Source: Rhynchopus sp. YZ270_cl-10 (Eukaryota). From it: a DNA stretch of 64,000 bases. The translations under genes were made by a program, and so were the position numbers. The stretch lies in NCBI GenBank assembly GCA_964035575.1, contig OZ037845.1:62001-126000 (forward strand), given 5' to 3'. Under the pieces are notes generated by a model. That model did not search any database, was not told where the DNA came from, and saw nothing but the letters and a program-made list of their open reading frames with translations. Below, in pieces: positions 14,857 to 46,616 of this stretch. Within the stretch, counting starts at the first letter, position 1; each line of letters begins with the position of its first letter.

Positions 14857-17800
14857 ACCTGCAGCAGCACCGACAGCAACAGCAACAGCAGCAGCAGCAA
14901 CTGCAGCAACAACACTGTAGGTGGGGGTGAGCGAGGTATGCTGGTGTTCGGGGCCAGCCTTGCGGGGCGAGAAGGACAGAGTTACTGTGTGACGTTACGG
15001 GTGTGGGGGACCTTTATCACCCCCAATGTTCACATGGGGCGTGCAGAACATGGGCTTGGGTTTGACTGGTGGAGCATCCTTTGGGAACGCCTTTCTTCTC
15101 TGCGCCGACCAGACCCCCGCTGGGTAGCCGAGGCACCTGAGTGGGGTGTGTTTGTGTCTTTCGCGGTCCTGGACATGTGGAAGGACAGACGCGCCCCTAC
15201 CCTCAGTCACCTCATATTGTGGCTGGTGGGTAGGAGGGGGACCAGGAGGACGCGCCGAGGTCACAGGTCCTTGAACTGGACCAAGGCACAGGCGAGCAGG
15301 TTCCGTCGGCGCAAGGCGCCATGCAAGCGTCCGCCCTCTCAACTTTTCCGCAGGATAAGGGCAGCCGTTGTGAGAGTGGCTTTGCAGTGGGTGGCCATCT
15401 GGGCTCTGGTTTGCGTGGGGTATGAGCTTGGGAGATCGGCGCCACGGGCTTTGGGTTGTGCACTGATCCGGGACGCAGAGCTGCTGAGTGTGCTGCTGAG
15501 GAAGGGGCTCCTACAGGGCCGATACAGAGCACGTAGCGGGAGGCTGTGGTTGCGAGTACTTGCCAGCAGGGTGTGGGTTTTCATGCAGAGGTTGAGGCGA
15601 CCGGCGGGGACAGGGGACGGGTGGGAGCTGTCACCTCAGAGCATAAGCCTGGGGCCCGGGGCGCTGGCAGGTGGAGCAGACGGGGACATCAACCCGGAGG
15701 AGGCGGCAAACCTTGACGCATTCCTCGAGGTGCATGGGGGGAAGAGGGTGCCGAACGCAGCCAACGGCGAGTGCATGTACGTGGCCTTACTGGGTAAGAA
15801 GAACGCGCTGTACTTGGATGTCAGCAAAGCACGCACTGAGCTGGCTGACAGAGCGCGGGTCACGAAGGTGAAGACCGGTCTCAGACGCTACTTCGAGACC
15901 GAGGCACAGCTGTCAAGCTTCATTGACGGCCTCACCAACCCTGAGGTGTGGGGCAACCACCTCACCCTACACCTGGCAGCAAATGCATGGTCCACCACGA
16001 TAGCGGTAGTGCAGCCTGGGCCGAATCCAGTGGTGACGATCAACCCCGCAGCCTCATCGAAAGACTTGCGGACGCAGAAAGACCGCCGCGTCAGGGTAGT
16101 TTCACTCCTCAATAATCACTATGAGGAAGTGCAAATGGACCCAAAGAACGCCCTGGCAATGGTCCAGTCGGCCCCCTTCGCAGAAAGGCCTAACAGCAAC
16201 ACCCATCCCTGCCATGACGAAGGAGTCGCCTTCTCCTCTGGGGGCTGATGCACCGAGGCTCTTCTGCCCTGTTCCGTGTTGCAACGGAAGCAGTCTACAC
16301 CGTCCCCAGCCCTTCTCTGTTCCCGGCCTGCGCACACACATCGGTGCACACCTGTCTTCCGGCGACCACATCCCCCACGACACCCTCAACAAGTTGGGGT
16401 TAGGACAGTGTGAAGCGTGTGGGGGGATACGGTCGGCATCGAAGGAGACATGTCTTCAGTGTGCGAAACTGGTAAAGGCGATCGCAAAGCCCACACCCAG
16501 GGAACGCACCGCAGTGGAAAAGGCAGACGACGTTGACTTGCCGGAGTGGTGGGAGATAGCTCAAATCCCCATCAGGACAACAGATGCGATCCCCACGAGC
16601 ATCGACCGTCCAGCCGCTGTGGAGTTCACCCAGGCACTTGAGGATGTGGCCGCAGTTGGCGATGAGGCAAGCTGGAAACGTTTGTGCATGTTCGCGAAGC
16701 TGGTCCTACCGGCGAAGCGAGGTGGGAAGCACCTCAAGACGAAGGTGGCAGTCTTGCGGCAGAAGGATGTGGATGAGTGGAGAGAAGGTGAGATCGCAGC
16801 AATGTGGCGAGCAGCTGCGAATCGCACAGGCGGTACGAAGAAGGAGAAGGAGCGGAAGGAACCAACGTGGGAAGAAAGGGAGAAGGCGATGGTCCGGGAG
16901 GTGCGGAATGGGAGGATGGCAGCAGGGATGAGCCGCCTCCACAAGGGTGGGCTGGCAGAGCGTACTGAGGAATCCACAGACATCCTCCGCAGAAAGCACC
17001 CCCATGAGGAACCCCAACCTGCCACTTCTCTGCCGGAAATTGCTTCCGAGCCGCTGAAGCCGATCGCCGCCCTCAAAGCCATAAATAGCATGGCAAAGGG
17101 CTCTGCTCCAGGTCCCTTTGGTCTGCGCGGGGATCACCTCAAGGGGTGGATGGTCAAACACCCGGACCTGAACATCTTGCCACTGATGACGCAAGTCCTG
17201 GACCTGCTGCGACGCGGGAAAGCCCCCTCCGAGACAGCTATGTTCATGGCAGGAGCTACTCTGGTGGCGTTAAAGAAGGGTGACCAAGGCGACGTCCGCC
17301 CCATCTCTGCAGGCAACACACTTCGGCGAGTCGTGAGCAAGATCGAGGTGGCGTCTGTGAGGGAAAAGGCACGAGGAGTGCTGCTGCCAGGGAGACAAGT
17401 TGGGGTGGCGGTGGACGGTGGACTGGAAGCGGCGACAATGGTTGTGGCAGCATACGCAAAACGACACCAGGGGAGCGACAAAGTGATCGTACAGATTGAC
17501 TACGAGAACGCATTCAACAGCATCTTTCGCAAGACTTTTCTGGAAGCCACAAGGAAATATCTCCCGTCCATTTCACCGTGGGTCGAATGGTGCTACAACT
17601 CCCACACCGGGCTAGTGTATGGTGACGAGATGATCCCATCCACCAGAGGCGCGCAGCAAGGCGACCCCGCAGGGCCCCTACTCTTCTCCCTGGGGATCAA
17701 AGCACTGACAGACGAAGTGCGTGCAGTCCAGGGCATCGACTGTAGCATCTGGTACCTCGATGATGGGACGATCATGGGGAACCCAGAGGCGGTGGCTCGA

Positions 17801-26438: not shown

Positions 26439-26443
26439 GCCCA

Positions 26444-27121: not shown

Positions 27122-27170
<49 letters not shown>

Positions 27171-27343
27171 GGGGCACACACGTTTTGCTACACACTACCC
27201 CATCTTGTCCTTTGCTTCTCCCCTTATCCCCTTTCCCCCACTTGTTTTCCCCCTTGTGTGGGTCCTACCTGTCGCCTCCTAGTGGCGTGTCCTGGGCAGA
27301 GAGAAGGCCGTTGAGTAGTTCCTCTCTGGCGAAGTGCAGGTAG
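27171..27343 (+). ncRNA. HDV-like self-cleaving ribozyme at the element 5' end
   Basis: P1 GGGGCAC 27171-77/GUGUCCU 27287-93 with G1-U wobble; P2 CUACCUGU 27265-72/GCAGGUAG 27336-43; P3 GCC/GGC with L3 UCCUAGU; P1.1 GG 27294-95; P4 AGAGAG/CUCUCU; J4/2 GGCGAA with catalytic C27330. Confidence 0.9.
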
Positions 27344-27403
27344 AGACGTGTATTTTGTCTTCCTTGTCCTTTTGTTTTTTACTGTTTTGACTTTTTTGTT
27401 TTC

Positions 27404-30400
27404 TTGGTGGTGAAGATGTGCAGGTGGAGTGCCCAGCTTTGGGCTATGGTGCTCCTGTGTGGAGCCATGGATGATGGCGGGGGTGACAGCCGAAGCTGGT
27501 GCAGCAACATGAGCAACATGCGCAGCAGCAGCAGCATGAGCAGGAGCAGCATGAGCAGCAGCATGAGCAGCAGCAGCATGTGCAGCAGCAGCATGAGCAG
27601 CAGCAGCATGAGCAGCAGCATCGTGAGCAGGAGCACTGCCATCAACATCAGTACCTCCCACGGTTGCGGCAGGCACGTATCGCGAGTGGGCTCCTCAACA
27701 CCAACTCAGCACTCTCAGGTACCACGTTCTCGCTGCAGCAACATGAGCAGCCATGACTGGAGTGATGGCCTCTATGGCAGCGTCTACTGCAACAATAGCG
27801 GCTCCAACAACCACACCAGCAACATCTACACCTGCAGCAATGGCCGCAAGGGCTTCATGTGCAGCGGCTACAGAAGCTGCAGGTGCACCCCCATTCCCCC
27901 CCATTATTACCCCAAAAAGAGGCCTGTGCCCAACAACCCAAGCGGCTGCAGCTTTGATAGCAGCAACAACAACAACAACTACAACAACGGTGGCAGACAC
28001 TGGATGCGTGGGCGGACACTAGATGTGCGGGCGGACAGCATCAGCAGCAACAACAGCAACTACAACAACAGTGGCAGACAGTGGATGCGCGGGCGGACAC
28101 TAGATGTGCGGGCGGGCAGCATCAGCAGCAACAACAACAACAACTACAACAACAGTGGCAGACAGTGGATGCGCGGGTGGACACTAGATGTGCGGGCGGA
28201 CAGCATCAGCAGCAACAACAGCAACTACAACAACGGTGGCAGACAGCGGATGCGCGGGCGGACACAGGATGTGCGGGCGGACAGTATCAGCAGCAACAAC
28301 AGCAACTACAACAACAACCGTAACACCAGCAACAACAACAGCATCAGCAGCACCTGCAGCAGCACCGACAGCAACAGCAACAGCAGCAGCAGCAACTGCA
28401 GCAACAACACTGTAGGTGGGGGTGAGCGAGGTATGCTGGTGTTCGGGGCCAGCCTTGCGGGGCGAGAAGGACAGAGTTACTGTGTGACGTTACGGGTGTG
28501 GGGGACCTTTATCACCCCCAATGTTCACATGGGGCGTGCAGAACATGGGCTTGGGTTTGACTGGTGGAGCATCCTTTGGGAACGCCTTTCTTCTCTGCGC
28601 CGACCAGACCCCCGCTGGGTAGCCGAGGCACCTGAGTGGGGTGTGTTTGTGTCTTTCGCGGTCCTGGACATGTGGAAGGACAGACGCGCCCCTACCCTCA
28701 GTCACCTCATATTGTGGCTGGTGGGTAGGAGGGGGACCAGGAGGACGCGCCGAGGTCACAGGTCCTTGAACTGGACCAAGGCACAGGCGAGCAGGTTCCG
28801 TCGGCGCAAGGCGCCATGCAAGCGTCCGCCCTCTCAACTTTTCCGCAGGATAAGGGCAGCCGTTGTGAGAGTGGCTTTGCAGTGGGTGGCCATCTGGGCT
28901 CTGGTTTGCGTGGGGTATGAGCTTGGGAGATCGGCGCCACGGGCTTTGGGTTGTGCACTGATCCGGGACGCAGAGCTGCTGAGTGTGCTGCTGAGGAAGG
29001 GGCTCCTACAGGGCCGATACAGAGCACGTAGCGGGAGGCTGTGGTTGCGAGTACTTGCCAGCAGGGTGTGGGTTTTCATGCAGAGGTTGAGGCGACCGGC
29101 GGGGACAGGGGACGGGTGGGAGCTGTCACCTCAGAGCATAAGCCTGGGGCCCGGGGCGCTGGCAGGTGGAGCAGACGGGGACATCAACCCGGAGGAGGCG
29201 GCAAACCTTGACGCATTCCTCGAGGTGCATGGGGGGAAGAGGGTGCCGAACGCAGCCAACGGCGAGTGCATGTACGTGGCCTTACTGGGTAAGAAGAACG
29301 CGCTGTACTTGGATGTCAGCAAAGCACGCACTGAGCTGGCTGACAGAGCGCGGGTCACGAAGGTGAAGACCGGTCTCAGACGCTACTTCGAGACCGAGGC
29401 ACAGCTGTCAAGCTTCATTGACGGCCTCACCAACCCTGAGGTGTGGGGCAACCACCTCACCCTACACCTGGCAGCAAATGCATGGTCCACCACGATAGCG
29501 GTAGTGCAGCCTGGGCCGAATCCAGTGGTGACGATCAACCCCGCAGCCTCATCGAAAGACTTGCGGACGCAGAAAGACCGCCGCGTCAGGGTAGTTTCAC
29601 TCCTCAATAATCACTATGAGGAAGTGCAAATGGACCCAAAGAACGCCCTGGCAATGGTCCAGTCGGCCCCCTTCGCAGAGCTTGACCCGAAAGGCCTAAC
29701 AGCAACACCCATCCCTGCCATGACGAAGGAGTCGCCTTCTCCTCTGGGGGCTGATGCACCGAGGCTCTTCTGCCCTGTTCCGTGTTGCAACGGAAGCAGT
29801 CTACACCGTCCCCAGCCCTTCTCTGTTCCCGGCCTGCGCACACACATCGGTGCACACCTGTCTTCCGGCGACCACATCCCCCACGACACCCTCAACAAGT
29901 TGGGGTTAGGACAGTGTGAAGCGTGTGGGGGGATACGGTCGGCATCGAAGGAGACATGTCTTCAGTGTGCGAAACTGGTAAAGGCGATCGCAAAGCCCAC
30001 ACCCAGGGAACGCACCGCAGTGGAAAAGGCAGACGACGTTGACTTGCCGGAGTGGTGGGAGATAGCTCAAATCCCCATCAGGACAACAGATGCGATCCCC
30101 ACGAGCATCGACCGTCCAGCCGCTGTGGAGTTCACCCAGGCACTTGAGGATGTGGCCGCAGTTGGCGATGAGGCAAGCTGGAAACGTTTGTGCATGTTCG
30201 CGAAGCTGGTCCTACCGGCGAAGCGAGGTGGGAAGCACCTCAAGACGAAGGTGGCAGTCTTGCGGCAGAAGGATGTGGATGAGTGGAGAGAAGGTGAGAT
30301 CGCAGCAATGTGGCGAGCAGCTGCGAATCGCACAGGCGGTACGAAGAAGGAGAAGGAGCGGAAGGAACCAACGTGGGAAGAAAGGGAGAAGGCGATGGTC

Positions 30401-32593
30401 CGGGAGGTGCGGAATGGGAGGATGGCAGCAGGGATGAGCCGCCTCCACAAGGGTGGGCTGGCAGAGCGTACTGAGGAATCCACAGACATCCTCCGCAGAA
30501 AGCACCCCCATGAGGAACCCCAACCTGCCACTTCTCTGCCGGAAATTGCTTCCGAGCCGCTGAAGCCGATCGCCGCCCTCAAAGCCATAAATAGCATGGC
30601 AAAGGGCTCTGCTCCAGGTCCCTTTGGTCTGCGCGGGGATCACCTCAAGGGGTGGATGGTCAAACACCCGGACCTGAACATCTTGCCACTGATGACGCAA
30701 GTCCTGGACCTGCTGCGACGCGGGAAAGCCCCCTCCGAGACAGCTATGTTCATGGCAGGAGCTACTCTGGTGGCGTTAAAGAAGGGTGACCAAGGCGACG
30801 TCCGCCCCATCTCTGCAGGCAACACACTTCGGCGAGTCGTGAGCAAGATCGAGGTGGCGTCTGTGAGGGAAAAGGCACGAGGAGTGCTGCTGCCAGGGAG
30901 ACAAGTTGGGGTGGCGGTGGACGGTGGACTGGAAGCGGCGACAATGGTTGTGGCAGCATACGCAAAACGACACCAGGGGAGCGACAAAGTGATCGTACAG
31001 ATTGACTACGAGAACGCATTCAACAGCATCTTTCGCAAGACTTTTCTGGAAGCCACAAGGAAATATCTCCCGTCCATTTCACCGTGGGTCGAATGGTGCT
31101 ACAACTCCCACACCGGGCTAGTGTATGGTGACGAGATGATCCCATCCACCAGAGGCGCGCAGCAAGGCGACCCCGCAGGGCCCCTACTCTTCTCCCTGGG
31201 GATCAAAGCACTGACAGACGAAGTGCGTGCAGTCCAGGGCATCGACTGTAGCATCTGGTACCTCGATGATGGGACGATCATGGGGAACCCAGAGGCGGTG
31301 GCTCGAGCGCTGGAGTTAGTGAGGACACGCAGTGCGGAGCTGGGGCTGAAGGTGAAGCTGTCAAAGTGTGAAGTCATCGCCCTAGGACAGCAGACTCCGT
31401 TGGACCTGGACAGAGCTGGCCTCCCCGTGTGCAGCCACACCACTGACTTGGCGGAGACTTGCTCAGCCTGTGAAGGAAAAGTGATGAGCGTGAAGTATGG
31501 AGGCTTTGCGTTCCTGGGGGCGCCAATCGGGGACGACGAGTACTGCGAAGCGTACATGGAGAAGAAGGTGGAGGAATTCGCGGTGCAACTGCGTCTGCTG
31601 CAGAAGGTGTCTGACTCGCAGGCTGGACTGACATTACTCCGTCAGTGCGAGGGGTTTGCACGCATGGTTTTCTACATGAGAGCCATTGGTCACGCGTGCA
31701 CCCACAAGTACCTCAGCCAGTACGACAAGGAGGTAGACGCCGCCCTGGCCGCGCTTTTTGGTGATGAGGATGGAGGCCTGCCGGAAGAAGCACGGAGACA
31801 GGCCGCACTGCCATGTAGGGTAGGGGGCATGGGCGTGCGCCGCATCCGCGACCACTGGACTGCAGCAGCCATGGGAGCAAGGAGCGGCCTGCACCAACTG
31901 TGCACCGAACTGGACCCCAGCTTCACCTGGGACGCCGAAGGATGGGAACGGACGGCAACGCTGTACAACGAGCAAGTGGCTGAAGGTGCTAGGATTGACC
32001 CCAAGCTGCAGCCAGCCGTCCCCCTGCGTCAACGTGATCTGTCTGCAGGGATCCTGGAGGAACAATTGCGGGACCTCTTCGTCAAGGGTGATGCGTACGA
32101 CAAGGCGCGTCTCAATTCTCTGGCCCTCCCCCAAGCAGGGTCCTGGCTTACTGCACCCCCCACCTGGGAGCACTACATCCCTCCGATTGCATTCAAGGCC
32201 GCAGCCAGACTCCGCCTCCACCTCCCCATATACGCGGAGGGTGTCTCATGCAGGCAATGCAACCAGCCCATGGACACCAGGGGGGACCACATCTTCGCCT
32301 GCAGAATGGGTGGGCATCGTATACTGCGACATAACTCAGTACGCGATTATGTGTATGGAGCAGCAAATGAGGCAGGTCTGAGCCCCATCCTGGAACCCAA
32401 CCACCTCATCCTGGGCAACAACAAGCCCGCTGACATTCTGCTGTCCACAGGGGTCGGGGAGTCGAGAGGACGAGCTATCGATGTGACTGTGTGTGTGGAC
32501 GCCGACGTCAGCGTCGATGGTGCAGGGTGCCGCAGTCGCGAAGGGGTACGCGGCGACGAAGGCGGAAACTGCCAAGAGGAAGAAGCATGGTGA
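27404..32593 (+). CDS. CRE-A polyprotein part 1: Ser/Asn-rich repeats, hydrophobic segment, OTU1, Zn finger, reverse transcriptase, first half of RLE
   Basis: NGECMYVAL..WGNH..NHYE; CPVPCC..HIGAH; APGPFGLR, VRPISAG, IDYENAFN, QQGDP, YLDD; CRQC..H..C, RHN, PADI. Confidence 0.92.
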   Translation: MVVKMCRWSAQLWAMVLLCGAMDDGGGDSRSWCSNMSNMRSSSSMSRSSMSSSMSSSSMCSSSMSSSSMSSSIVSRSTAINISTSHGCGRHVSRVGSSTPTQHSQVPRSRCSNMSSHDWSDGLYGSVYCNNSGSNNHTSNIYTCSNGRKGFMCSGYRSCRCTPIPPHYYPKKRPVPNNPSGCSFDSSNNNNNYNNGGRHWMRGRTLDVRADSISSNNSNYNNSGRQWMRGRTLDVRAGSISSNNNNNYNNSGRQWMRGWTLDVRADSISSNNSNYNNGGRQRMRGRTQDVRADSISSNNSNYNNNRNTSNNNSISSTCSSTDSNSNSSSSNCSNNTVGGGERGMLVFGASLAGREGQSYCVTLRVWGTFITPNVHMGRAEHGLGFDWWSILWERLSSLRRPDPRWVAEAPEWGVFVSFAVLDMWKDRRAPTLSHLILWLVGRRGTRRTRRGHRSLNWTKAQASRFRRRKAPCKRPPSQLFRRIRAAVVRVALQWVAIWALVCVGYELGRSAPRALGCALIRDAELLSVLLRKGLLQGRYRARSGRLWLRVLASRVWVFMQRLRRPAGTGDGWELSPQSISLGPGALAGGADGDINPEEAANLDAFLEVHGGKRVPNAANGECMYVALLGKKNALYLDVSKARTELADRARVTKVKTGLRRYFETEAQLSSFIDGLTNPEVWGNHLTLHLAANAWSTTIAVVQPGPNPVVTINPAASSKDLRTQKDRRVRVVSLLNNHYEEVQMDPKNALAMVQSAPFAELDPKGLTATPIPAMTKESPSPLGADAPRLFCPVPCCNGSSLHRPQPFSVPGLRTHIGAHLSSGDHIPHDTLNKLGLGQCEACGGIRSASKETCLQCAKLVKAIAKPTPRERTAVEKADDVDLPEWWEIAQIPIRTTDAIPTSIDRPAAVEFTQALEDVAAVGDEASWKRLCMFAKLVLPAKRGGKHLKTKVAVLRQKDVDEWREGEIAAMWRAAANRTGGTKKEKERKEPTWEEREKAMVREVRNGRMAAGMSRLHKGGLAERTEESTDILRRKHPHEEPQPATSLPEIASEPLKPIAALKAINSMAKGSAPGPFGLRGDHLKGWMVKHPDLNILPLMTQVLDLLRRGKAPSETAMFMAGATLVALKKGDQGDVRPISAGNTLRRVVSKIEVASVREKARGVLLPGRQVGVAVDGGLEAATMVVAAYAKRHQGSDKVIVQIDYENAFNSIFRKTFLEATRKYLPSISPWVEWCYNSHTGLVYGDEMIPSTRGAQQGDPAGPLLFSLGIKALTDEVRAVQGIDCSIWYLDDGTIMGNPEAVARALELVRTRSAELGLKVKLSKCEVIALGQQTPLDLDRAGLPVCSHTTDLAETCSACEGKVMSVKYGGFAFLGAPIGDDEYCEAYMEKKVEEFAVQLRLLQKVSDSQAGLTLLRQCEGFARMVFYMRAIGHACTHKYLSQYDKEVDAALAALFGDEDGGLPEEARRQAALPCRVGGMGVRRIRDHWTAAAMGARSGLHQLCTELDPSFTWDAEGWERTATLYNEQVAEGARIDPKLQPAVPLRQRDLSAGILEEQLRDLFVKGDAYDKARLNSLALPQAGSWLTAPPTWEHYIPPIAFKAAARLRLHLPIYAEGVSCRQCNQPMDTRGDHIFACRMGGHRILRHNSVRDYVYGAANEAGLSPILEPNHLILGNNKPADILLSTGVGESRGRAIDVTVCVDADVSVDGAGCRSREGVRGDEGGNCQEEEAW
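27960..28410 (+). repeat. Four ~81-84-bp coding repeats (WMRGRTLDVRADSISSNNSNYNN) in a CAG/CAA-rich tract
   Basis: Read directly in the DNA and translation. Confidence 0.9.
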
Positions 32594-34427
32594 CGCGTGT
32601 GCGGCGGAGCGGCTGGCGTTCACACCCTTCGCCCTGGAGACCACAGGAGGTCTGGGACCCGCGGCGGCGTCGATATGGCAGCAGATGCTCCGTTTCGCAG
32701 CGGACAGGAAGCTTGGGAACAGAGTGGAGATGTCACAGAGGTGGAATTGGGGGCTAGGGACGACGCTGCAGCGACAGATCGGGAAGGCCGCGACGGATCG
32801 AGGGTCTCTGACTGGTTGCCTGAGGGGTCCTCTGCGAGAGCGTGTGGACTTAGATCCCACCGTCGACCCGGAAGAGGGGGACTTGATACGCTTGCCCCCC
32901 GACCATCTACCTAACCTGGAAGTGACAGACGACCACCAGGGAGACATCAGGGTGAGTGCGGAGGAGGAGCCAGAGACAGGCAACGAGAAGGAAACGGCGC
33001 CAGAGACAGCAGCACAGGACCCAACCCCCCACAGCGAACTGGAGGCCAACTTGGTGAAGTGGGGGCTGTCCCGACCGCAGGTGCCCGTGCCGTTCCGAGT
33101 AGGAGACTGTGCGTTCGACGCAGTGTGCTGGTCAGTGCGGAGCTGGAAGGTGGTGACATCGTCGACCCTTCGGTCCCTGGCGGTGGAGAGAGTGAAGAGA
33201 GATGCTGACCTGGCGAGAAATGCGATGCCCGACCTCGCGACCTGGGTGCGATGGATGAGCCTGGCAGGGAACAGGGATCGCAGGTCGTGGGCGGACCAGA
33301 CAGCACTGGCGGGTCTGGCACGGGCTTTGCAGGTAGTCATTGTGGCGGTCGTGTCATCGGACTCTAAGGTGCACATCCATAGACCAGCCAGCAAGTCGAA
33401 CGGGGCCGTAGCAGTGCTGCACACAGGAGCTCACGAGGCTGGCCACTTCTCGCCGTTATGCATGACAGACAACACGTTTGCATATCTGCGAAGCCTTGCC
33501 CCCGACACCCCCCTTCCAGAGATGCAGTGCCACAGCACCGGAGCGCTGTCACGGATGGAGGAGCGCCCGGGGAGACAGGGGGAATTGCTCACGTGCGAAA
33601 ACTGCGCACTCATCACCGAATGTAGTGTCCCCCACTGGTTTTGTAGTTCCTGCGAGCGCACATGGTGTGAGGGATGTGGGAGCGCCAACGCAAAGTGTGT
33701 GCTGAGGGCAAAGCCAGTTCAGCCAGTTCAGCCAGTTCAGCCGACAACATCGCAGACAGTGGGAGGTAGCTACTACAACAGCAACCCAGCTCCCCCACAG
33801 GACGCGGCAACGGAGGTGAAGGAGGAGGTTATGGATGAGGAGGATTCCGCCGACTGCGCCGACCACGACACCACCATGGACAACAACACCGCAACCGCAG
33901 CAGAATCCTTCGTCTGGGGGCCATCAGAGCAGAGCTACAACACCACACCAACAGCTCTGACTGGTGACCACCACTTGGGTTCAGCGAAGACTGGTGGATG
34001 GACGGCTAAGTCCCACGCGGAAAGAAGGACGAAGCTGACCACCCTTGGGACTTCGCGGCGGGCGCAGGGGAACCACACTCGTCGCTCCGGTGTAGTGGAG
34101 GACAGGTCTGCGGAGACCACAGCAAGGCGGCCTTCTCCCCCTATCTCGCGAGGGTCGGATGTGGAGGCGAAAGGGTTAGTCCCACACAGCCAGAAGGAAG
34201 GGGACAGGGTGCCGAGAAATGTCGAAGAGTGGGCGGACTGCTTCTTCCCCAGGGGAGGGACCAGGCGAGAGGGAATGACTCCCTTGGCACCGGAGGTGGC
34301 GTACGAGGCGCTGGACGCGTGGTGGGATCAGCGGGAGGAGCTGGGGCGCGTCGGAGGACGGCAGACGAGTCAGTACGGGGCGCTTAGGGCGGTCCTGGTG
34401 CTGATGATGGAGGCGACCTTCAAATAG
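32493..34427 (+). CDS. CRE-A polyprotein part 2 (+1 frame): second half of RLE, OTU2, Cys-rich Zn finger, tail
   Basis: AETAKRKKH, FTPFALETTGG; GDCAFDAV..WADQ..GHFSPL; CENC..CSSC..CEGC. Confidence 0.88.
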   Translation: MWTPTSASMVQGAAVAKGYAATKAETAKRKKHGDACAAERLAFTPFALETTGGLGPAAASIWQQMLRFAADRKLGNRVEMSQRWNWGLGTTLQRQIGKAATDRGSLTGCLRGPLRERVDLDPTVDPEEGDLIRLPPDHLPNLEVTDDHQGDIRVSAEEEPETGNEKETAPETAAQDPTPHSELEANLVKWGLSRPQVPVPFRVGDCAFDAVCWSVRSWKVVTSSTLRSLAVERVKRDADLARNAMPDLATWVRWMSLAGNRDRRSWADQTALAGLARALQVVIVAVVSSDSKVHIHRPASKSNGAVAVLHTGAHEAGHFSPLCMTDNTFAYLRSLAPDTPLPEMQCHSTGALSRMEERPGRQGELLTCENCALITECSVPHWFCSSCERTWCEGCGSANAKCVLRAKPVQPVQPVQPTTSQTVGGSYYNSNPAPPQDAATEVKEEVMDEEDSADCADHDTTMDNNTATAAESFVWGPSEQSYNTTPTALTGDHHLGSAKTGGWTAKSHAERRTKLTTLGTSRRAQGNHTRRSGVVEDRSAETTARRPSPPISRGSDVEAKGLVPHSQKEGDRVPRNVEEWADCFFPRGGTRREGMTPLAPEVAYEALDAWWDQREELGRVGGRQTSQYGALRAVLVLMMEATFK

Positions 34428-35249
34428 AAGGGCCTCGCGATTGGTTGTGATTGTGGTTTATGTGGGCACTGTTGCCCTTCCCTTCTCTGTTATTTTCCCC
34501 CACCCCAACTTTTGTGTGTAGCAACACCTGTTTAGTTCCCTGTTTCCTTTTTACCCCCAACCCCTCCCATTAGATACATGTGTGTAATCCCCCTGGTGTC
34601 AAGCCCCTTGTATGTAAATTCCAAATCTTCCCCCTCACAGAAAACGTCAGGAGTAAGCCAAGGAGGCGGTTTGTCTGTGGGCGTCGGCCTAGGAGTAAGC
34701 GACGGAGATTTTTTCCCCCACCCCATCCCCTACGAGTTCCATGGGGGGTCGCTACTGGCGTTAATCATCCAAACAAAAAAGACTACAAGAGACAAAACAA
34801 AAGTAACAAGAAAGGAACTTCGTATTGTAAAAAGAAAGCCCCATCCCGCCCCTTCCTCCCCTCCAGAACCAGCTGGGCACCAATACTGGAAATACAGCAA
34901 AACCACACAGACTGGACAGTCTATATTCACCCCTGCCTCTCCCGTGTTAATGTTCACCCCTCCTTTATCCCAAATTGTCATAGAGCTAAATATAGTTGTA
35001 TGCCTCGCTTCGCTCGGCAAACAACGATACATAATAGGGCGACATGCTGATGACAAATATCTCCCTCGTTTAATTCACTTTTGTGCCTCGTTCTAACTAA
35101 ACCGGCACATGTACTGATTGTAAGACTTTTGGCCCTCGCTTCGCTCGGACCAAGCGCCTTTCATGTGCATTATAAACGTACCCCCCTTGCCCTGTCCAGT
35201 TTGATGTGGAACAAAAAAAAGTCGAGCCTAGGGCTAAGTTGAACAACAC

Positions 35250-35296
<47 letters not shown>

Positions 35297-36857: not shown

Positions 36858-39800
36858 GTGTTGTTCAACTTAGCCCTAGGCTCGCTTTTTTTATCCACAT
36901 CCAGTGACAGAGGGGGTACTTACTAGTCAAGCGAGTATGTAAACAGCTAGATGTCCAGACAAGGGCACTTTACTATTGTACTGGCAAGACAGTGCCTGAA
37001 AACACAGTTAGGGGCACTAAAATAGAAAGCATGTGGGACAACTACAACCAACACTTCCCTGCAAATAAGCAAAAGGGTCGTATGTGAGTGCAATTTTTCC
37101 CAAAAGGAAAAGGGGAGGGGATGGGACGGGAGGGTTGCTCTGTCTACCGGTGTAGTTTTATTTTGCTTTGTCTTGGGGAGGGGAGGGGAGGAGAAGGAGA
37201 AGGAGGGGATTGAGTGAGCCGTTTCCTCTGTAACACACAAACAAATAAAAAGGAAGTTCCATAATCTTTTTAGTAGTTTTCTTTTTGGTGAAAATTTTTG
37301 AGAACTTCAGTAAGTGTGACCTGACCCGACTGACTGACACCCAAAGGGTAAAACAACAATAACGCACAACAAAATCAACAACAACAATGGTGGGTCTCGT
37401 GCTTACCTGTGGTGGTTTTGAAAAATGAAAAATTGAAATTGACCTTCACAAGGTAAAAATGAAAAACTAAAGGAGTGAAAAAAGGAACTCAAAGGACAAG
37501 AGTTCTGTACAAACTCTACTCTACTGCACAATCTATAAAAGTGGCCCAATGGCTCCTGATGCCACTGGCCTGGCTCTTAGACAGGTCTTACTCCGAGACT
37601 GCCCTCTACCCTCAGAGCCTCGTCCAAGGGGTAATGGCCGTCGCTGGGGTAGACCCGTCCTAGCCAGCAGCCAACCAAAAATATTAACAAATAGGAAGGG
37701 GGGCGGAAAGGGGGGAAAGGGGGGGCAAACCCCAAAGGATGAAAAGAACAAAAAACACAAAATAAAAAGGGTTAAAAATAAACATGGGGCAAACTGTCAT
37801 TCTCACACACTCTCACCCTCTAACTCTCTAACTCTCTAATTCTTTTTATTCCCCTTTTTCCCCTTCCTTCCTCCGCTCTGTCTCCCCTTCTGTCCACCAC
37901 CGCGACCATTGCGCCCTCTCTGCACCTCCTGGGGCGAGAGCACATGCTGCGTCGCTTGTGCCACTGCGTCGGTGAACACGTTCGACGTGTTGGACCTACC
38001 CTGAGCTGCATGGCGCTGGGGTCCTTTGGGAGCTGGGGAAGGAGCAGGTTGGGCGGAGGAGGTTGCATTGCCACGGCCTGCCGATGAGGAGGAGGAAGAA
38101 GTGGAGACTGCAGGTTGGGCGATGGAGGTTGTAGTGCCACGGCCTGCAGAGGTGGAGGAAGAAGAAGAAGAAGAGGAGGCTTGAGGTTGTCGGCCTATTC
38201 CCTCTCGAGCCGCTCGTGCCTCATTCTCCCTCCTTGTACTCTCCGCTGCAAAGGCCTGCCCCCTACTGCTCCGGTTGTCCGTCAGGGCATGCAACGTCGA
38301 CTTTGCCTTGCACTTTTCCTGAACCGACCACTCATGCAAACCCACCACCTTCATCACCTCATACCACTGAGTGAAAGTAGCGGTAGAGAGGGGGAGTGAC
38401 AACAAGGGTCTGCCATCCTGTTTCTCTCCCTGACGGTAGTGGAACAGGGAGATCCACTTCGTCACAGAAGAAGGCACCGGCGACCCCATGGTGAGGCACG
38501 GGAAAAGACCCCCCCTCTCCGTCCGCTCCTCCTCCGTCCACATCCAAGCCTCGCTCTGCGCCCTCAGCAATTCCCTCACCCTCGCTTGCTTCTTCTGGTC
38601 AGGGATGCCTTCCACTGACAGAGAAAGCGAGCGATCCGCCCCCTCCATCGCGGTGTCGAGGTCCTCCTCCTGCTCCTGCTCATCATCATCCATCTCCTCC
38701 ACCTTCACACGCACCTCGGAGTCTGCCGCCTCGGCCTGTCGCCCCACCTCCTCCTCCAGCTGATCCCGAGAAGGGGTTCCCCAGCTGACCCTGCCTTCCC
38801 GAACGACGATGACCGCGCTGGTCTTGCCCCAGGTATCGCAGTATCCGGCCTCCCCTGCTATCTTCCTAACCGCCTGACGGGCGACCACCGACTCCGGGCA
38901 ATCACCGTCCCCCTCCCCGTTCCCACTCCACGGCTGCTGTGTCGCCCAGCAGTACAGGAACTCGCCCGGGCACGGAGAAGCACCTTGAGGACCAAAGAGA
39001 GCCATCCAGTCGCCGACACAGTCAGGTTCGAGTCCTTCAGGGTCGTCGCCCACCGCTCTCCGCACCGCATGGCAGGGGAGGAATAGCCGCCCTTCGCACA
39101 CCACCCCAAAGCACCGCCCGTATGCCACCATGCGTTCTGCCTCCAGCTGTCGGGAGAGGTTCACCGCCGTCAACAACAGAGTGGTCGCCTTCTGCTCCGA
39201 CTCATGCTTAGCTGCGATGGCGTAATGCCTCTCGCAGCGTTGCCTGTCATACTCCGCCCGGAGCGACTCTCCTGCTTCGGGGTGCCGATCGCAGTCTTCC
39301 AAGTACTGCGCATGCATCTTCTTCGCGTCCTCTGCGAGTTCCCGCTTGTGCCTGGCGGTCAGCTCCTCCACACGATGCCTGTCCGCCGCCTTCGCCTGGT
39401 CCAGACGCACATTCTGTTCCTCCAGGAAACGACTCAACTCCTGCTGGCGGTCGCCAAAAGTGCCCCGAAGCGCGGCCAAATCCGGTCCCCACGACCGACG
39501 ATGCTCCCGCCGTACCTCCAGGGCTTGCTGCCACGCGTCCGACGCACGCTGCAACGCTTCCTTCTTCACCTGGTCCGCCTTTTGTTGTTGCTGCTTCTGC
39601 TGTTTCCGTTGCTTCTCGTGCTTCTGCTGCTTCTGTTCTGCCTGCTGCCCCTCTTCGCCCGCCATTGGCATGTCTACCTCCTCGACGTCCTCGCCCTCGG
39701 GAGCTGGCACTGCTGGAGAAGGAGCCCGTTTAGGTGGTGGGTCTCCGCTCCCCTCCGCAGAGGCAGCCTGAGCCGGAACATTCGAGTGCAAAAAAGACAG

Positions 39801-42800
39801 GGCACTGAAATATTCCGCCCTGCCAATTTGCGACAGAGCGCAGTGCAGACATGCCAAGCCACCACACGTGTGACAGCAGAAGTGTGCGTCCGACGCATCG
39901 AAGAGCTTGCTGCATTGTTCGCACTGCAGGAAAGTGTTCGACGCCTCCGCCTCCCTCGCTCCCACAAAAGCCATGGGGCGCTCTGACTGGCACTCCCCCT
40001 TACCACCTGTGGCCTCAAAAGACAGGATGTGCTGCTGCAGAGCCGGGTCCATGGTGAGGGGCTCGTAGTGTCCCGGGATACTGCCGGATCCATCTGCCGC
40101 ATCCTGGTCACCCGAGTGGAGGAGAAGGACCACTGCCTTAGGCCGTTTTCTTGGCACCATCAGAGAAGGGCGGGCGAACTCGTTGAGGATGACCACAGAT
40201 ACCTCAAGAGCCTCCCCTGCCCCCGCCACTGCAATGGCATCCGCCCACGTACGCTCGTCTCCTCTGTCCCCACTCGTCATCAGCCGCTGCCAGACCCCAA
40301 AATTAGGGACAGCCGCACTCGACAGATCAGCGCGGCCCTGGACCTTCTTCACTGCCGCCTGGCGCAGACCCTCCACCGACAAATCCGTGCGCCCAGTGGC
40401 GAAGAGCAAAGCCTCAAAAGCACAGTCCCCCGCCACAAACGACCAAGTCACCTTCGAGGCTCCCAGCTTGGCCGCCTGTTCCGTCGCCCGAGGCCTCTGC
40501 GCTGCCGGGCACTCACGCAAAAACTCCCACTCACGCACCACATCGAGACCCGGCCCTTCCGGAATCACGGTAGCCGAATCGAACCTCCCGGTCCGCTTCC
40601 TCGGTGGCTCCACGTGGTCCGGCTTCACGTCCCTCTTGCGCTTCCCCTGCTGCTCCTCCGACCGGTCTGGAGCAGGACGACTCATATCGTCGTCAGGGTT
40701 CGCATCATCACAGAGAGGTTCCACGGCCCCTGCACTGCGGCGTCCAAACCGGTCCATGTCCTCTGCAGACGGTGCCACATCTACCTCCACACACGGCTCC
40801 CGCTTCAGGGTGGCAATCCCTACACACATAGCACCCCGCTCCAGAAAGGAAGATGCGACCTTTTTCTGGTACGCCACCGCAATGCTCTCCCGGATGCGCA
40901 ACTCTGCCGACCCTGTCAGGTGCGACGTCTGTCCCGTCGTCAGGCCTCCAAGCTGCGCAATCAAGAGGTTCGCCTCGTCGCCTGCACCCCCGAAGGCTTC
41001 AAACACAATAGGGGAGAACTTGGTGTTGATCTTGTTCAAATCCCGCTCGTGCTTCTCCCGTTTGACCTGGCCCTGGTTCTTCGCCGACCAGCCCACAAAC
41101 TTCGAGGCCCCTGTTCTGTAGGAAGGCAAGGTGGGGCACACGTGGGTGATGTCCAAACAACGAGGTCCATTTTCCGCCACTCCTACTGGGAGGTAGACGT
41201 CGCCTGGCCGCTTCTTCGACTCCAAATCCACTCTCACGGTCTCCTCCAAAGCAGGGTCCAAGCCCGCCCCTTGAGCCGCTCTGTACACCGAATCCCGCAA
41301 GGCGTTGTGGCGGGCGACGCGGTGTTTGGCGTAGGGGCAGCCAAAGGTGTGGTCGCCAAAGGAGTCCATGACAACCCTTTTCTGCCCCCCCTGACATGCC
41401 GAGCAAGTCGTTCCCTCCGCATGGATGGCCACCCCTAGTCGGAAACGGGTCACAACCGCAAAGTCCGCTGAAGACATCTGGTTCCTTGCTGAGGGTGTCG
41501 CCGTGAGGTACGTCCCAGAAAGCGGCAGGAGAAGGGACTTCATCCGTGCTCGGTCTCGCATGCAGAGCTGTTGCATCAACTTGTCTGCCTGGGCGTCAAT
41601 CACCGCAGACGACAGACTCTGCTGCTCCAGGATCTTCTTCGGCTGAGCCCTGTCCACGTGAAACGCCACCGGTACCCTGGAGTTGTACTCCTCAGCCGCG
41701 CTGTTCCATCTCTCCTCATCCCAGGTGAACGCAGGGTCCAAGGCCTGCGACAGTTGCAGGTTCCCTGACTGAGAGGCGAGGGACGCAGCCGTCCGATGGT
41801 CCACTGTGCGACGGATACCCAGCCCCCCAAGCGCCACAGGAAGCGCCGCCTGCGCCCTTGCCAACTCCGGCAGCGCCCCATCCGGGTCATGCAGAAGCGC
41901 AGCCAGGCACCTGTCAATCAGGTCGTCAAAAGCCGTCAGGTACTCCGCGCACTGTGGGATCCCCCGCATGTAGAACACCATGCGGCAGTAGCCTTCGCAG
42001 TATCTCAGTACGTAGAAGGCTGCCTGGGCGTCCCCGAGGTCCACAAGGGCTTCCAGGTTGCGGCGGGAATCGTCCACCTTCCGGGCCATGTACTCCTCGC
42101 AGAAAGCCGCAGACCCAATGGGGATGCCCAAGAAATCGAACCCATCCACATCCAACAGCCGAAACCCGCCTTCACCCATGGCGTCCTGTCCACCCTCGTT
42201 CAACGTGAACCCCACGGCCTCGAGATCCTCCTTGGAGACGCCACCAGTGGAGATGAGCTCACACTTGTTCGCGTTCACCTCCAACCCCAGTTCGGAGCTA
42301 CGAGTGCACAGAACCTGGTACGCCTCGAAAACCGCCTTAGGGGACCCCCTCAGAGAGCCGTCATCGAGGTACCACAAAGTCCCATCCAGGCCTGGGTGCC
42401 CCTTCAGCTCTAGCGCCATCTGGTGTATGGTCAGGGAGAAGAGAAGCGGGCCCAAGGGATCTCCTTGTTGAGCTCCGCGCTGAGACTTTATGGTATCCCC
42501 ACCATAGAACAGGCTAGAGTGCTCCAGGTAACACCATCGCACCCATGGGGCCAGCTCGGGGAGGTTGGCGTCGACCGCTCTTAGCATCGACAGGCGGTCT
42601 ACGCAGTTGAACGCGTTACGGTAGTCAATTTTCAAAATGACTTTACCTTTTCCGCGGTTGCGCCCGGCGTACTGCGAGATAACATCAGTCGCCACTGCCG
42701 CCCCCCTTGCCGTTGCCACCCCCACCGGTTCCCTCGAAGAAGAAGCGTCCTAGCAGGCACCCGCACTCGCGCCGACAGAATCTTTCCCACCAGTCTGCGG

Positions 42801-45800
42801 AGAGTGTCCCCAACCGCAATCGGACGCACGTCCTCCTCCAGGCCCGGCCCCTTTGCAGGCTTCCGGAGAGCCACCAAGTTAGCGCCGGCGAAGACTCAGC
42901 CACCTCCACTGGAGCATTTCCTCGTGCCAAAGACGTCAACACTGCGGCCAGCGCTGCCAAAGTTCCCTTAGCCCGCCTCTGTAGGCAAAGTGTACGAAGG
43001 TGCGCGCCCGTCACGTTCGAGGGACCCGCCGCCGATGACTTCGGCATGCTCCGCAGGGCCTTCATCACCTCCACCACTGTCACCGGTGGGACCTCCTGAG
43101 GCTGTGGCCAATCCGCCTGCTCCAGGGCCTTGGCATCAGCTGCGGCTGGGTGCTTCGTCTGAAGCTTTTCCAGCGTCGCCGGTGTCTGTGGGGCGAGGCC
43201 GTCGCTGGTAGCGCATGACATGGCCTGGCTCGGGAGTCCTGCTCTCGCTTTGGCTATGGTGCGCTTCCGTCTCCCTTCGTCAGTGTCTTCATCCGACCAC
43301 CCAGAGGGCCTTGGCTTCCGCTCCTCTACCGTTTGCTCCCACAGGGCGACATACTGGCCAGCCTTCCAAGCCTCCAAGTCCTTCCCCCAGGTGCTCGTCA
43401 AACGTCGCTCCTGGTCCTTGCCCCCTCGCTCTGTCCGTGTCCGGTGCAACACTGTGAAGAACAGTGCAAGGCGCTTCCAGGCCACCTCGTCCTGGTACTC
43501 CAGGATGTCCATGAGGACCCTCAGGAAGAGCTCGCTGTACAGCTGCAGGTGTTTGTCTGGGCACCCGCCCTTCAGCTGGATCCTGGTGGTCCCCATGACT
43601 TCAAAGGAGGGGAGGTCATCCTGATCTGTCAGCATTCCTCGACTGGAGGGAGACGGAGCGGTGAAGCCTTCTTCGCCAAAGTGCACCGTACAGGTGTTGC
43701 AGACCTCCTTGCTCTGCGGCAATAGCATGTCGCACTGATCGTTCGCACAGCGCGACATGCCCAAGTGGCCCAACAGCTCGTCGGGGATGTACGCTCCATC
43801 CGCCTGGTGGCGACGCATGTGCTGCAGCAAGCCCTTACGAGACAGGCCCCCGACCGCATCACTCGAAGACAAAATTCCCGCTCTGCATCCATCAAAGGGG
43901 CAGAACACCCGATCCGCATTGATGTGTCCCAGCTTGGTAGCCAGGGGGGCGGTGGTGGTGGTGTTGGTGGGGATGATGCCATCCAAATGCGCTGTGTCCA
44001 GCACTGCCTGCCGAGCCTCCTTCCTCATCTTCTCTGCCATCCCCTCCTTGGTCTTCCCCACCTCCGGGACAAGCTCCACTGCCTCAAAGTGAGAGTCACA
44101 GAGAGCGATGACGACCGTGGGAAGTTTCGCTTGGAAGCTCTCCGCGTACGACTTGGCGACTCTTTTGCTACCAGGGGTGATGCGCACGAGGGGGTTCTCT
44201 TCCGACGCCTGCACTACCACGATGTTGATGCGGGATGCTGTCGCGGTGAGCTGAAGCCCCAAGTGGTTGAGGTGGGCCTCGCCGGTCACACCATTGGCAA
44301 ACTCCGTCATGGCCTCCTGCGACCCCAGCACCTGCACCAGGCGGTTCGACACCTCCACTGCTGTGTCATACAGCTGCTTGCGCATTGCCCTCACGTCCGG
44401 CTGCGTGTCGTGGTCCCAGAGGTGTAGTGCCACATAACCACAATCATTTGTGGACACGTTGGGGATGCGTTTAGCTCCAAACTTCGCCAGAGTCGCGTCC
44501 ACAGACACCGCTTGCTCTGTATACGCAGGAGCGTTCACGTTTGCGCACCCACCGGTCAACGCAAACGGGGACAAGCTGATCGGGTGCTCCGGATCCGCAG
44601 GGGCAGGGCGCAGGTCCCAGGGCGTCACCGCTCGCCACAACAGCGACAGCAAGACCAGTAGGGACACCACCAGCATGCCAAATGCCATCCCGATCCTACG
44701 AGTCCACCTGCGTGCTGCCACACGGCGCACCTCCAAGAGAAGAACCCAGCCAAGTGGGCGCGCGACGCCGACCAGTGCCACAAAACCCGCCAAACAACCA
44801 CCTGCGGACCATGCAACCCACACCCACTCGGCTGCACACACCGACAACTGACCCACCCCCATCACACTGGCCCTCACCAAGCTGGCAGCCACTCGGATCC
44901 CTCCGGTCCATCGGCGCACTCGCTCGCTCGCCCCTTCCAGCCACCGCCATCCTCTCCGAACGCGGCACAGTCCCCGCAGCACACCCACCCCCAGCACCTC
45001 CGCGTCCCGAAAAAGCGCGCAACCCAAAACATGTGGCGCTGACCTCCCAAGCTCAGACCCCACAAAAACCAGAACCCAGATGGCCACACACTGCAAAGCA
45101 CCTCTCAACGCATCGGCGACCCTGATCCTGCGGAAAACTGGGTGCGCTGCCGGAGAGGGCGGACGATTGCAGGGCGCCTTGCGCCGACGGAGCCTGCCCG
45201 CCTGTGACTTGGTCCAGTTCAAGGACCGGTGTCCTCGTCGCGTCCTCCTGGTCCTCCTGCCCACCAGCCACAAAATGAGATGACTGAGGGTAGGGGCGCG
45301 TCTGTCCTTCCACAGATCCAGGACCGCGAACGACACAAACACTCCCCACTCAGGTGCCTCGACTACCCAGCAGGGGTCAGGTTGACGCAAGGAGGTGAAG
45401 ACCTCCCAGAGGTTGCACCACCAGTCGAACCAAAACTCTATCTGTACACACCCCTTTTGCCACACCCGCATCATCACACAGCCACTCTGTCCTTCTCGCC
45501 CCTCAAGGCTGACCCCGAACACCAGCATACCTCGCTCACCACCCCCTAAGTTGTTGTTGCTGCGTCTGCTGTTGATGTTGGTGCTGCTGTTGGACCTGCT
45601 GTTGGAACTGCTGCTGCAGAAGTCTATGGAACTGCAGTTGAAACTGCTGTTGTGCCTGCTGTTGGAACTGCTGCTGGAACTGCTTTTGGAGACGCTGTTG
45701 GACCTGCTGTTGGAACCGCTGCTGCAGAAGTCTTTGGAACTGCTGTTAAAACTGCTGTTAAGCCTGCTGTTGGAACTGCTGTTGGACCTGCCGTTAGAGC

Positions 45801-46616
45801 TGCTGCCGCAGAAGTCCTTGGAACTGCTGATGAAACTGCTGTTGTGCCTGCTGTTGTGCCTGTTGCTGGAACTGCTTTTGGAAACGCTGTTGGAACTGCT
45901 GCTGCAGAAGCCATTGGAACTGCTGTTTAAACTGCTGTTGTGCCTGCTGTTGGAACTGCTGCTGGAACTGCTGCTGGAACGGCTGTTGGAAACGCTGCTG
46001 CAGAAGTCTTTGGAACTGCTGTTGAAACTGCTGCTAAGCCTGCTGTTGGACCTGCTGTTGGAGCTGCTGCTGCCGAAGTCTTTGGAACTGCAGTTGAAAC
46101 TGCTGTTGTGCCTGCTGTTGGAACTGCTGCTGGAACTGCTTTTGGAGACGCTGTTGGACCTGCTGTTGGAACTGCTGCTGCAGAAGTCTATGGAACTGCA
46201 GTTGAAACTGCTGTTGTGCCTGCTGTTGGAACTGCTGCTGGAACTGCTTTTGGAGACGCTGTTGGACCTGCTGTTGGAACCGCTGCTGCAGAAGTCTTTG
46301 GAACTGCTGTTAAAACTGCTGTTAAGCCTGCTGTTGGAACTGCTGTTGGACCTGCCGTTAGAGCTGCTGCCGCAGAAGTCCTTGGAACTGCTGATGAAAC
46401 TGCTGTTGTGCCTGCTGTTGTGCCTGTTGCTGGAACTGCTTTTGGAAACGCTGTTGGAACTGCTGCTGCAGAAGCCATTGGAACTGCTGTTTAAACTGCT
46501 GTTGTGCCTGCTGTTGGAACTGCTGCTGGAACTGCTGCTGGAACGGCTGTTGGAAACGCTGCTGCAGAAGTCTTTGGAACTGCTGTTGAAACTGCTGCTA
46601 AGCCTGCTGTTGGAGC
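36808..46616 (-). mobile_element. CRE-clade non-LTR retrotransposon family B (probably 5'-truncated within its Ser/Asn repeats)
   Basis: Poly(T) 36808-36856, ~1-kb 3' UTR, same domain order as family A; 5' boundary approximate. Confidence 0.88.

Follow-up and report, generated by a model that had tools for sequence, protein, structure and literature searches.

Introduction

The cysteine protease families that deconjugate ubiquitin and SUMO (Ulp1, Josephin, C48 and OTU) all cut after Gly-Gly; OTU enzymes cut after the LRGG tail of ubiquitin, and viral papain-like proteases use LxGG sites in polyproteins. The consensus of LxGG-type cleavage consists of a hydrophobic residue (Leu) at P4, a free P3, Gly-Gly at P2-P1 and a small residue at P1'. 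Such proteases recur in retrotransposons without long terminal repeats (non-LTR elements), or long interspersed nuclear elements (LINEs), that have a restriction-like endonuclease (RLE): in the available portions of the respective papers, NeSL and Utopia-1_TSP are described with a Ulp1-like protease (PMC4640811), the Dualen element of Chlamydomonas with a Josephin-related cysteine protease (PMC9977147) and that of cryptophytes with a C48 peptidase (PMC5029228), and the same portions propose neither a cleavage site nor a substrate for these proteases. Here we analysed a stretch of 64,000 nucleotides from Rhynchopus sp. YZ270_cl-10 (GCA_964035575.1, contig OZ037845.1, positions 62,001 to 126,000, forward strand), called the window below and numbered from its first letter. 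It contains two families of an element that, as far as those portions describe them, resembles NeSL, Utopia and Dualen in being a single open reading frame (ORF) LINE, probably of the RLE kind, with a cysteine protease of a ubiquitin/SUMO-deconjugating family, and differs from them in that this protease belongs to the OTU family, occurs in two copies (N-terminal OTU1 and C-terminal OTU2) and is not accompanied by an APE domain. At the border between a long leader and OTU1 these elements carry a motif, [IV]-x-L-x-P-x-[AS]-[LM]-x-G-G, which we read tentatively, with a probability of about 0.42, as the site at which the element's own OTU1 would cut after Gly-Gly and free the leader from the enzymatic part.

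Arterivirus and tymovirus polyproteins are cut at sites that end in small residues after a hydrophobic P4 and lie C-terminal to the protease. The element resembles these viruses in that arterivirus PLP2 and tymovirus PRO/DUB are OTU-fold cysteine proteases within a replication polyprotein and act also as deubiquitinases (available portions of PMC3968130, PMC3744425 and PMC5695851). It differs in being a non-LTR retrotransposon, in having its putative site on the N-terminal side, 3-6 residues before the protease core, and in an OTU1 fold that is closer to cellular OTUD1, OTUD3 and OTUD5. The OTU of the nairovirus L protein (Crimean-Congo haemorrhagic fever virus, Dugbe, Hazara) is comparable in lying on the N-terminal side of a very large replicase-type protein; it has an extra N-terminal beta-hairpin, to which the modelled motif region would correspond by the end points of the alignments. 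Unlike there, a long leader precedes OTU1, the aligned segment ends in [LM]xGG, and the similarity is lower (Z about 10, versus 14 for cellular OTUs; sequence identity 8-16%). With R2/CRE-type elements it appears to share the order zinc finger (ZF), reverse transcriptase (RT), CCHC, PD..D/ExK, as well as the single ORF, 5' truncation and poly(A), and a relative from Diplonema is named 'SLACS 132 kDa protein'; OTU1, OTU2 and the long swappable leader are additions to that plan.

A fused OTU cysteine protease domain, with a suggested role in the ubiquitin pathway, is described for Ginger1 transposases and animal Helitrons (PMC2836005); unlike the element studied here these are DNA transposons with a C-terminal OTU, and neither a polyprotein nor an LxGG site is discussed in the available portion of that paper. 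About 2500 retroelement gene models are reported for the Diplonema genome, without detailed curation (available portion of PMC10161547). An OTU-carrying LINE did not turn up in full-text searches on OTU together with non-LTR, LINE or retrotransposon, which reached neither Repbase nor subscription journals nor supplements.

The motif at the border of leader and OTU1

The translation of 27404-32593 (+) contains WELSPQSISLGPGALAGGADGDINPEE and that of 46653-42685 (-) contains PEHPISLSPFALTGGCANVNAP, which place the motif in the window as follows.

29138-29170 (29138..29173 with the P1' Ala), + strand: family 1 copy 2, motif ISLGPGALAGG followed by Ala; LAGG at 29159-29170, GG at 29165-29170
Before the P1' Ala codon at 29171-29173, + strand: proposed scissile bond of family 1
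15643..15675, + strand: family 1 copy 1, motif of the same sequence; LAGG at 15664-15675
44580-44548, - strand: family 2, motif ISLSPFALTGG followed by Cys (44547-44545); LTGG at 44559-44548

The sequence-only reading had reported an LxGG motif conserved between two families whose neighbouring sequence is diverged. The motifs are real and in frame, their positions were confirmed, and 8 of the 11 residues match between family 1 and family 2. At five of the eight conserved codons the families differ synonymously (ATA/ATC, CTG/TTG, CCC/CCG, CTG/TTG and GGA/GGG) and the synonymous divergence (dS) of the surrounding OTU1 is 1.65, which argues that the conservation is at the protein level. In a six-frame translation of the window, the pattern L.P..[LM].GG was matched three times, only at the three element copies, compared with a mean of 0.43 and a maximum of 3 in 100 block shuffles. 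The divergence of the neighbourhood held for the flanks, with 29% identity between the family 1 and family 2 proteins across 592 aligned positions and with 12 variable columns behind GG. An exception is a leader block 150-800 nt upstream, where DNA identity between the families reaches 79-80% and their resemblance is much closer than in the enzyme part. The DNA similarity between the families ends at 28987, about 150 nt before the motif. No motif variants were seen in contigs of four sequencing runs, whose copies are too alike to be informative.

Occurrence of the motif in further OTU-carrying families

A word-based search found intact copies of family 1, a family 1b (57% identical) and a family 3 (31% identical), and a profile of leader tail, OTU1 and zinc fingers gave 3233 matches at E<=0.001 among 1.84 billion representative proteins. 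The best 150 of these 3233 were examined; 12 of them cover OTU1 by profile range and four more were recognised by the Cys-box/motif pattern. Matches were counted as family-level groups, 12 of which are informative; P0129, P0050 and P0110, whose models begin after the site, and P0058, which skips the site, were left out. A word-based protein search with longer lengths (query A4) returned only family 2 itself, and one with region 60-400 of P0055 only P0055 and P0057. An [LM]xGG followed by a small or polar P1' was found at the leader/core border in nine of the 12 informative groups, with P4 being L in six and M in three, P3 being A, T, S, R or Q and P1' being A, C, D, N or G.

fam1: ISLGPGALAGG, P1' A
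fam2: ISLSPFALTGG, P1' C
fam3: VALHPFSLSGG, P1' C
P0061: VLLHPFSMRGG, P1' C
P0051: VVLGPRAMQGG, P1' D
P0052: VRAGPGALRGG, P1' N
fam1b: MRGG, P1' A; every gene model starts at this Met
P0055/P0057: VLLGPHELAGG, P1' A
P0065: IWLDPHDLRGG, P1' G

The LxGG ending first noticed in two families is therefore conserved in more of them, including one from a named organism, Diplonema papillatum, which NCBI gives as the source of P0055 (the 'SLACS 132 kDa protein'). Column scores delimited a conserved island of I/V, L, P (7/7), A/S, L/M and GG (7/8), followed by about 12 variable acidic columns before the OTU core. This pattern resembles that of a protease site, in which the P-side columns are conserved, P3 is free and the columns after the cut vary. 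Two groups, P0055/P0057 and P0065, have a Pro-rich linker and zinc fingers behind the complete motif, with the Cys box of the OTU only about 125 residues farther downstream; that the motif is conserved there despite the intervening zinc fingers is the strongest reason to regard it as marking the border of leader and core and not as part of the OTU fold. The original description of the motif as standing immediately before OTU1 thus applies to most groups and fails for these two, and its description as a ubiquitin mimic fits the last four residues and not the rest.

Most relatives of the element have no OTU1. Relatives of the RT/RLE core are encoded by 401 metagenome stretches; a hidden Markov model of motif plus OTU1 had no match in 80 metagenome loci of such relatives, and loci whose frame extends well upstream have other sequence before the zinc finger, including a RING-like stretch in two. 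Of the 26 OTU-less proteins in which 120 or more residues precede the zinc finger, three have any [LM]xGG within those 120 residues, about 1.9 being expected by chance. Judged from these sequences, the motif goes with the OTU, though it does not always adjoin it. The two loci with the RING-like stretch (L018 and L026; CPVCL...H.LH..C) also have a conserved G-F-V-x-G-x-x-L-V-T-G-x-G-W-Q in place of OTU1, and by its sequence the stretch is another accessory module at the OTU1 position.

Another Gly-Gly pair, [KR]-R-G-G-[KA], lies before the RT at residues 939-945 of P0001, the translated window copy of family 1 (window 30218-30238), and does not vary among four families. As a candidate for a further cleavage site it was rejected, because its P4 is K, E or R, because P0052 has RSG there, and because the OTU-less L029 has ARGG; from its sequence it is probably structural.

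Fold and active site of OTU1

OTUs have their catalytic Cys at the start of a helix and a His box, H-x-D/E/N, near the end of the domain. Both boxes are present in the window.

29174..29640, + strand: family 1 OTU1, an acidic variable linker and then the core; codon of Cys622 at 29267-29269 (box NGECMYVAL), His box NNHYEEV at 29606-29626
44077..44547, - strand: family 2 OTU1; Cys box TNDCGYVAL at 44451-44425, His box DSHFEAV at 44097-44077

Against the Pfam profile OTU PF02338 (cut-off 23.3 bits), the intact family 1 protein P0015 scored above the cut-off (30.1 bits, E 8e-7), the window copy P0001 just below it (residues 618-738, 22.3 bits, E 2e-4) and the other families under it (17.7-21.7 bits); a phmmer search with leader tail and OTU1 found nothing under E 0.2 among PDB sequences. 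AlphaFold2 models of family 1 and family 2 were built on nine aligned sequences and reached a mean predicted local distance difference test (pLDDT) of 75.2 and 79.7. Foldseek returned 22 PDB matches at E<=0.001, with OTUD3, OTUD1 and DUBA ranking highest and only OTU domains among the matches listed; the top match was 4bou (E 8.2e-6, TM 0.82 on the target). In VIA comparisons with OTUD1 (4bop_A), both models gave Z 14.4, with root-mean-square deviations (rmsd) of 2.3 and 2.2 A over 140 and 143 aligned residues. The Cys is invariant in all nine aligned sequences and stands at the start of the modelled helix 78-84, and the His box (NHYEEV, SHFEAV or NHFDAV) is present in all eight of the nine sequences that reach it, reading H-F-S in family 3. 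On the basis of these models, OTU1 folds as an OTU; its Cys and His boxes are intact, which gives it the look of an active enzyme.

The leader is a coding module exchanged between families

The two leaders lie as follows.

27416..29170, + strand: family 1 leader, starting at the open frame's first ATG and ending with the motif's GG; S/N-rich in-frame tandem repeats at 27959-28388, block shared with family 2 at 28341-28987, then an Arg-rich tail
44581..46653, - strand: family 2 leader; S/N-rich repeats based on 12 nt, block shared with family 1 at 45617-44986, then hydrophobic and Arg-rich stretches

The frame is open for 578 codons upstream of the motif in family 1 and for 698 in family 2; the last 800-1050 nt before the motif contain no in-frame stop, compared with 3-10 stops in each of the other five frames in both families and with 3-13 when the leader is counted, and the periods of the tandem repeats are multiples of three (81 and 165 nt in family 1). 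The shared block of 650 nt (28341-28987, +, versus 45617-44986, -) has a nonsynonymous divergence (dN) of 0.126 and a dS of 0.326 by the Nei-Gojobori method, giving a dN/dS of about 0.39. From these features the leader is an open frame under moderate purifying selection, that is, a real coding module, and there is therefore something that cleavage would release. By the same method, dS between the families is 1.65 in OTU1 and 2.27 in the zinc-finger region; as the leader has only 0.33 compared with 1.6-2.3 in the core, leaders were exchanged between the families long after the cores diverged, and the sequences suggest that a 5' coding module was recently exchanged between two LINE families. The last 60-120 residues of the leader are Arg-rich (9-24% Arg) and net basic in seven of nine groups. 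No Pfam match and no usable ESM atlas match was obtained for the leader, which is thereby assigned to neither a family nor a fold.

Two other accounts of the conserved block were rejected. Its flat codon-position differences (28/28/41) might indicate non-coding DNA, which the stop-codon count and the dN/dS rule out, and a shared insertion target is ruled out by its position inside an open frame and its presence in copies elsewhere. Rfam at gathering thresholds gave no match in the whole window, so that no ribozyme or rRNA target explains the block. In contigs of run X7, the summed depth of the piece 28730-28835 exceeds that of the motif/OTU1 part about 40-fold (112,127 versus 2,788), and the piece occurs in several variant contigs; this leader piece seems to be common to many more repeats than the OTU-carrying elements.

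Does OTU1 cut at the motif?

If the motif is a processing site, OTU1 would recognise the [LM]xGG tail in the way in which ubiquitin's LRGG tail is recognised by OTU deubiquitinases, and would hydrolyse the peptide bond between Gly and the following Ala, Cys, Asp, Asn or Gly, either in cis or between molecules. The products would be a basic leader protein and a separate enzymatic protein, and the released leader could possibly serve as an ORF1-like RNA-binding partner. We favour cleavage because the groups share an exact [LM]xGG with a small residue behind it, because its place at the border is fixed, because it survives where zinc fingers are inserted, because the leader is exchangeable and because viruses offer a precedent: OTU-fold proteases of arteriviruses and tymoviruses cut their own polyproteins in cis and in trans (available portion of PMC3968130). 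By extension, and tentatively, a protist LINE lineage that includes diplonemids might make its accessory protein by self-proteolysis, with a cellular-type OTU deubiquitinase domain cutting its own polyprotein at [LM]xGG and releasing a basic, rapidly exchangeable stand-in for ORF1 from a ZF-RT-endonuclease protein.

Several results weigh against cutting by OTU1. Three of the 12 OTU-carrying groups have no motif: P0053, a truncated model, keeps the Pro and has A..AT in place of L..GG; P0062 is decayed at the site; and P0084 has no leader, its gene model opening directly with the OTU, 25 residues ahead of the catalytic Cys. Each of the three may be a broken copy or a model cut short. All gene models of family 1b begin at the P4 Met itself. 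The conservation extends to P11, which is longer than the ubiquitin tail, and the three-family alignment has five invariant GG positions, four of them clearly structural; L or M at P4 consequently carries limited weight, as invariant GG pairs are not rare in this protein. Both AlphaFold2 models predict order at the motif (residues 31-50, pLDDT 76-78), and with only 3-6 residues between GG and the start of the OTU core the geometry for cutting in cis is uncertain. Most OTU enzymes, moreover, leave linear peptide bonds uncut, according to the available portion of PMC3968130.

With respect to reach, a complex prediction that paired the OTU1 core (model residues 46-215) and the tail of the leader (10-45) scored 0.00; the alignment was not used and the fold of the partner is uncertain, so that this result is no evidence either way. 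In DUBA, a segment of some 12 residues ahead of the first core helix covers the tail of ubiquitin close to the active site, and by this analogy it is plausible that the motif segment is able to reach the OTU1 cleft.

There is one strong rival, a structural role of the motif, which is a serious possibility and almost as likely as cleavage. Here the motif would be an uncut N-terminal beta-strand or hairpin of OTU1, as in nairoviruses, built from an I-x-L strand, an x-P-x turn, an [AS]-[LM]-x strand and a GG hinge; it would help to bind ubiquitin or a ubiquitin-like substrate, OTU1 would have no task other than deubiquitinating proteins of the host or the element, and the leader would not be detached. 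The hydrophobic residues do alternate, the Pro is invariant and the motif occurs only where an OTU is present. Both models place a three-residue strand (I35-L37) in the ordered stretch, which follows one of low confidence (pLDDT 39 and 52). In the VIA comparisons of both models, nairovirus OTU chains align from their own residue 5-12, at model residue 22-34, onwards and so cover the motif (for example 3phu_B, Z 10.4 and 10.9, rmsd 3.5 A, 138 and 139 aligned residues), whereas cellular OTU cores align only from model residue 48-51, 2-5 residues after the GG; these ranges state no more than the end points of each alignment, and nine sequences underlie the models. Nairovirus OTUs are described as having a beta-hairpin and as playing no role in autoproteolysis (available portion of PMC3968130). 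On the other side, a strand of the OTU fold accounts poorly for P0055/P0057 and P0065, in which the fully conserved motif is split from the OTU core by the Pro-rich linker and zinc fingers, and for P0084, whose OTU model begins without any such strand; the columns directly after GG also vary in sequence and in length (13-17 residues to the first core Asp).

Two further uses of the motif are unlikely: that host deubiquitinases or OTU2 cut it as a site resembling the ubiquitin tail, or that it is a tethered pseudo-substrate that occupies and regulates the OTU1 cleft without release. The last four residues do fit a general [LM]xGG tail, intact copies such as P0004 do have a second OTU domain at the C-terminus, and the motif is modelled as ordered beside the OTU core; against this, OTU-less relatives, in which host enzymes could act just as well, do not have the motif, the leader is unlike ubiquitin in Pfam and atlas searches, and no LxGG stands ahead of OTU2. 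That the similarity is no protein signal at all, and reflects chance, conservation of a nucleotide element or simply the surroundings of an internal start of translation, is very improbable and on sequence grounds largely refuted already: the Met at P4 of fam1b, P0061 and P0051, where all fam1b models start, and the nearby leader block conserved in DNA would suit it, but there are synonymous differences within the motif, the DNA similarity stops short of it, it recurs in nine groups at about 30% identity, one of them from another named organism, P4 is Leu in six groups and the frame is open far upstream in both families.

Since the motif is conserved and precisely placed, it gives a concrete and cheaply testable hypothesis for the role of such proteases in RLE LINEs, among which the OTU found here joins the Ulp1-like enzymes of NeSL/Utopia and the Josephin-related and C48 enzymes of Dualen. 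If OTU1 does cut there, single-ORF LINEs would make two proteins by self-processing, as do RNA viruses with OTU-fold proteases, and with the motif a processing site would be defined for the first time in a protease-bearing non-LTR retrotransposon, a counterpart of the arterivirus and tymovirus OTU systems. If the motif is instead structural, the elements would have a deubiquitinase module like that of nairoviruses, which would point to interference with the ubiquitin signalling of the host.

Layout and copies of the element

From its sequence the element is a poly(A)-tailed, single-ORF LINE, probably of the RLE kind, in the order leader, OTU1, zinc fingers, RT, CCHC/RLE and OTU2. In RLE elements a C-terminal CCHC motif precedes a PD-(D/E)xK-like endonuclease. 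The copies in the window are the following.

27169..35292, + strand: family 1 copy 2, near full-length, from the 5' untranslated region through OTU2 to poly(A), with one frameshift near 32493-32560
14857-20425, + strand: family 1 copy 1, 5'-truncated, starting inside the leader and broken just after OTU1; its 3' end is apparently 26604-27168
46653-42685, - strand: family 2, first frame with leader and OTU1
37836..42725, - strand: family 2, continuation in a second frame with RT and downstream parts after an apparent frameshift near 42700; Pfam RVT_1 E 1.5e-12

In P0001 the Pfam profile RVT_1 matched residues 1126-1365 (E 3e-18). Its C-terminal part and that of P0004 show by eye C-x2-C-x9-H-x3-C followed by RHN, KPAD and DVTV...K, which looks PD-(D/E)xK-like; Pfam gave no match to a profile of this domain. 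Features of non-LTR retrotransposons are present in the poly(A) tracts at 27122-27168 and 35251-35292 and in the 5' truncation of copy 1. Copy 2 begins right after the poly(A) of the preceding copy and ends in its own; the two copies are 99.8% identical over 28352-34733. Copy 2 departs from the intact proteins P0004 and P0015 by one frameshift: in the second frame, 32493-34427 corresponds to residues 1482-2125 of P0004, with 643 of 644 positions matching. These intact copies from elsewhere are 2125-2139 residues long and run on into a second OTU domain and a Cys-rich tail.

OTU2, at about residues 1680-1810 of P0004 (within window 32493-34427, +), lies on the C-terminal side, after the endonuclease and before the Cys-rich region; its Cys box is GDCAFDAV and its His box AGHFSPL, and the stretch ahead of it, read by eye, has no LxGG. 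The 3' end and poly(A) of copy 1 (26604-27168) adjoin the 5' end of copy 2, so that the family 1 copies stand head to tail. Copy 1 (14857-27168) appears to be split by an insertion of 6.2 kb (20426-26603), in which there are two perfect arrays of 8-mers, (CTTAGTTC)n (21386-21528) and (GGGTACCT)n (26131-26438), as well as ORFs that matched nothing in Pfam.

Near-identical family 1 copies (74-99% of sampled words) were found in sequencing runs of four coded organisms (A-D) from four studies, and smaller shares in runs under three more labels (E-G); family 1 may be carried by an organism found in company with several hosts or as a contaminant of them. No RNA run was present among the listed sequencing runs that carry the family 1 element.

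Other features of the window

The window has 54% G+C and is packed with mobile elements. A Helitron-type element at 1905-7727 (+) has an ORF of 1940 residues with Helitron_like_N, PIF1 helicase and Pif1 2B domains. On the minus strand, an ORF of 2620 residues (49012-56874) has no Pfam match and one of 2112 residues (57398-63736) only a weak match to a RanBP zinc ribbon. A tandem duplication of 1.5 kb (35306-36771 and 36808-38295, 94% identical) lies at or past the 3' end of the minus-strand family 2 element. Perfect or near-perfect microsatellites, (TGCGGGTT)n, occur twice, at 8848-9065 and 13378-13477, and a 13-mer array, (TGCAAGGATGCTG)n, of about 50 copies lies at 46794-47439, directly upstream of the family 2 leader; the microsatellite arrays could be tails of other elements or preferred targets.

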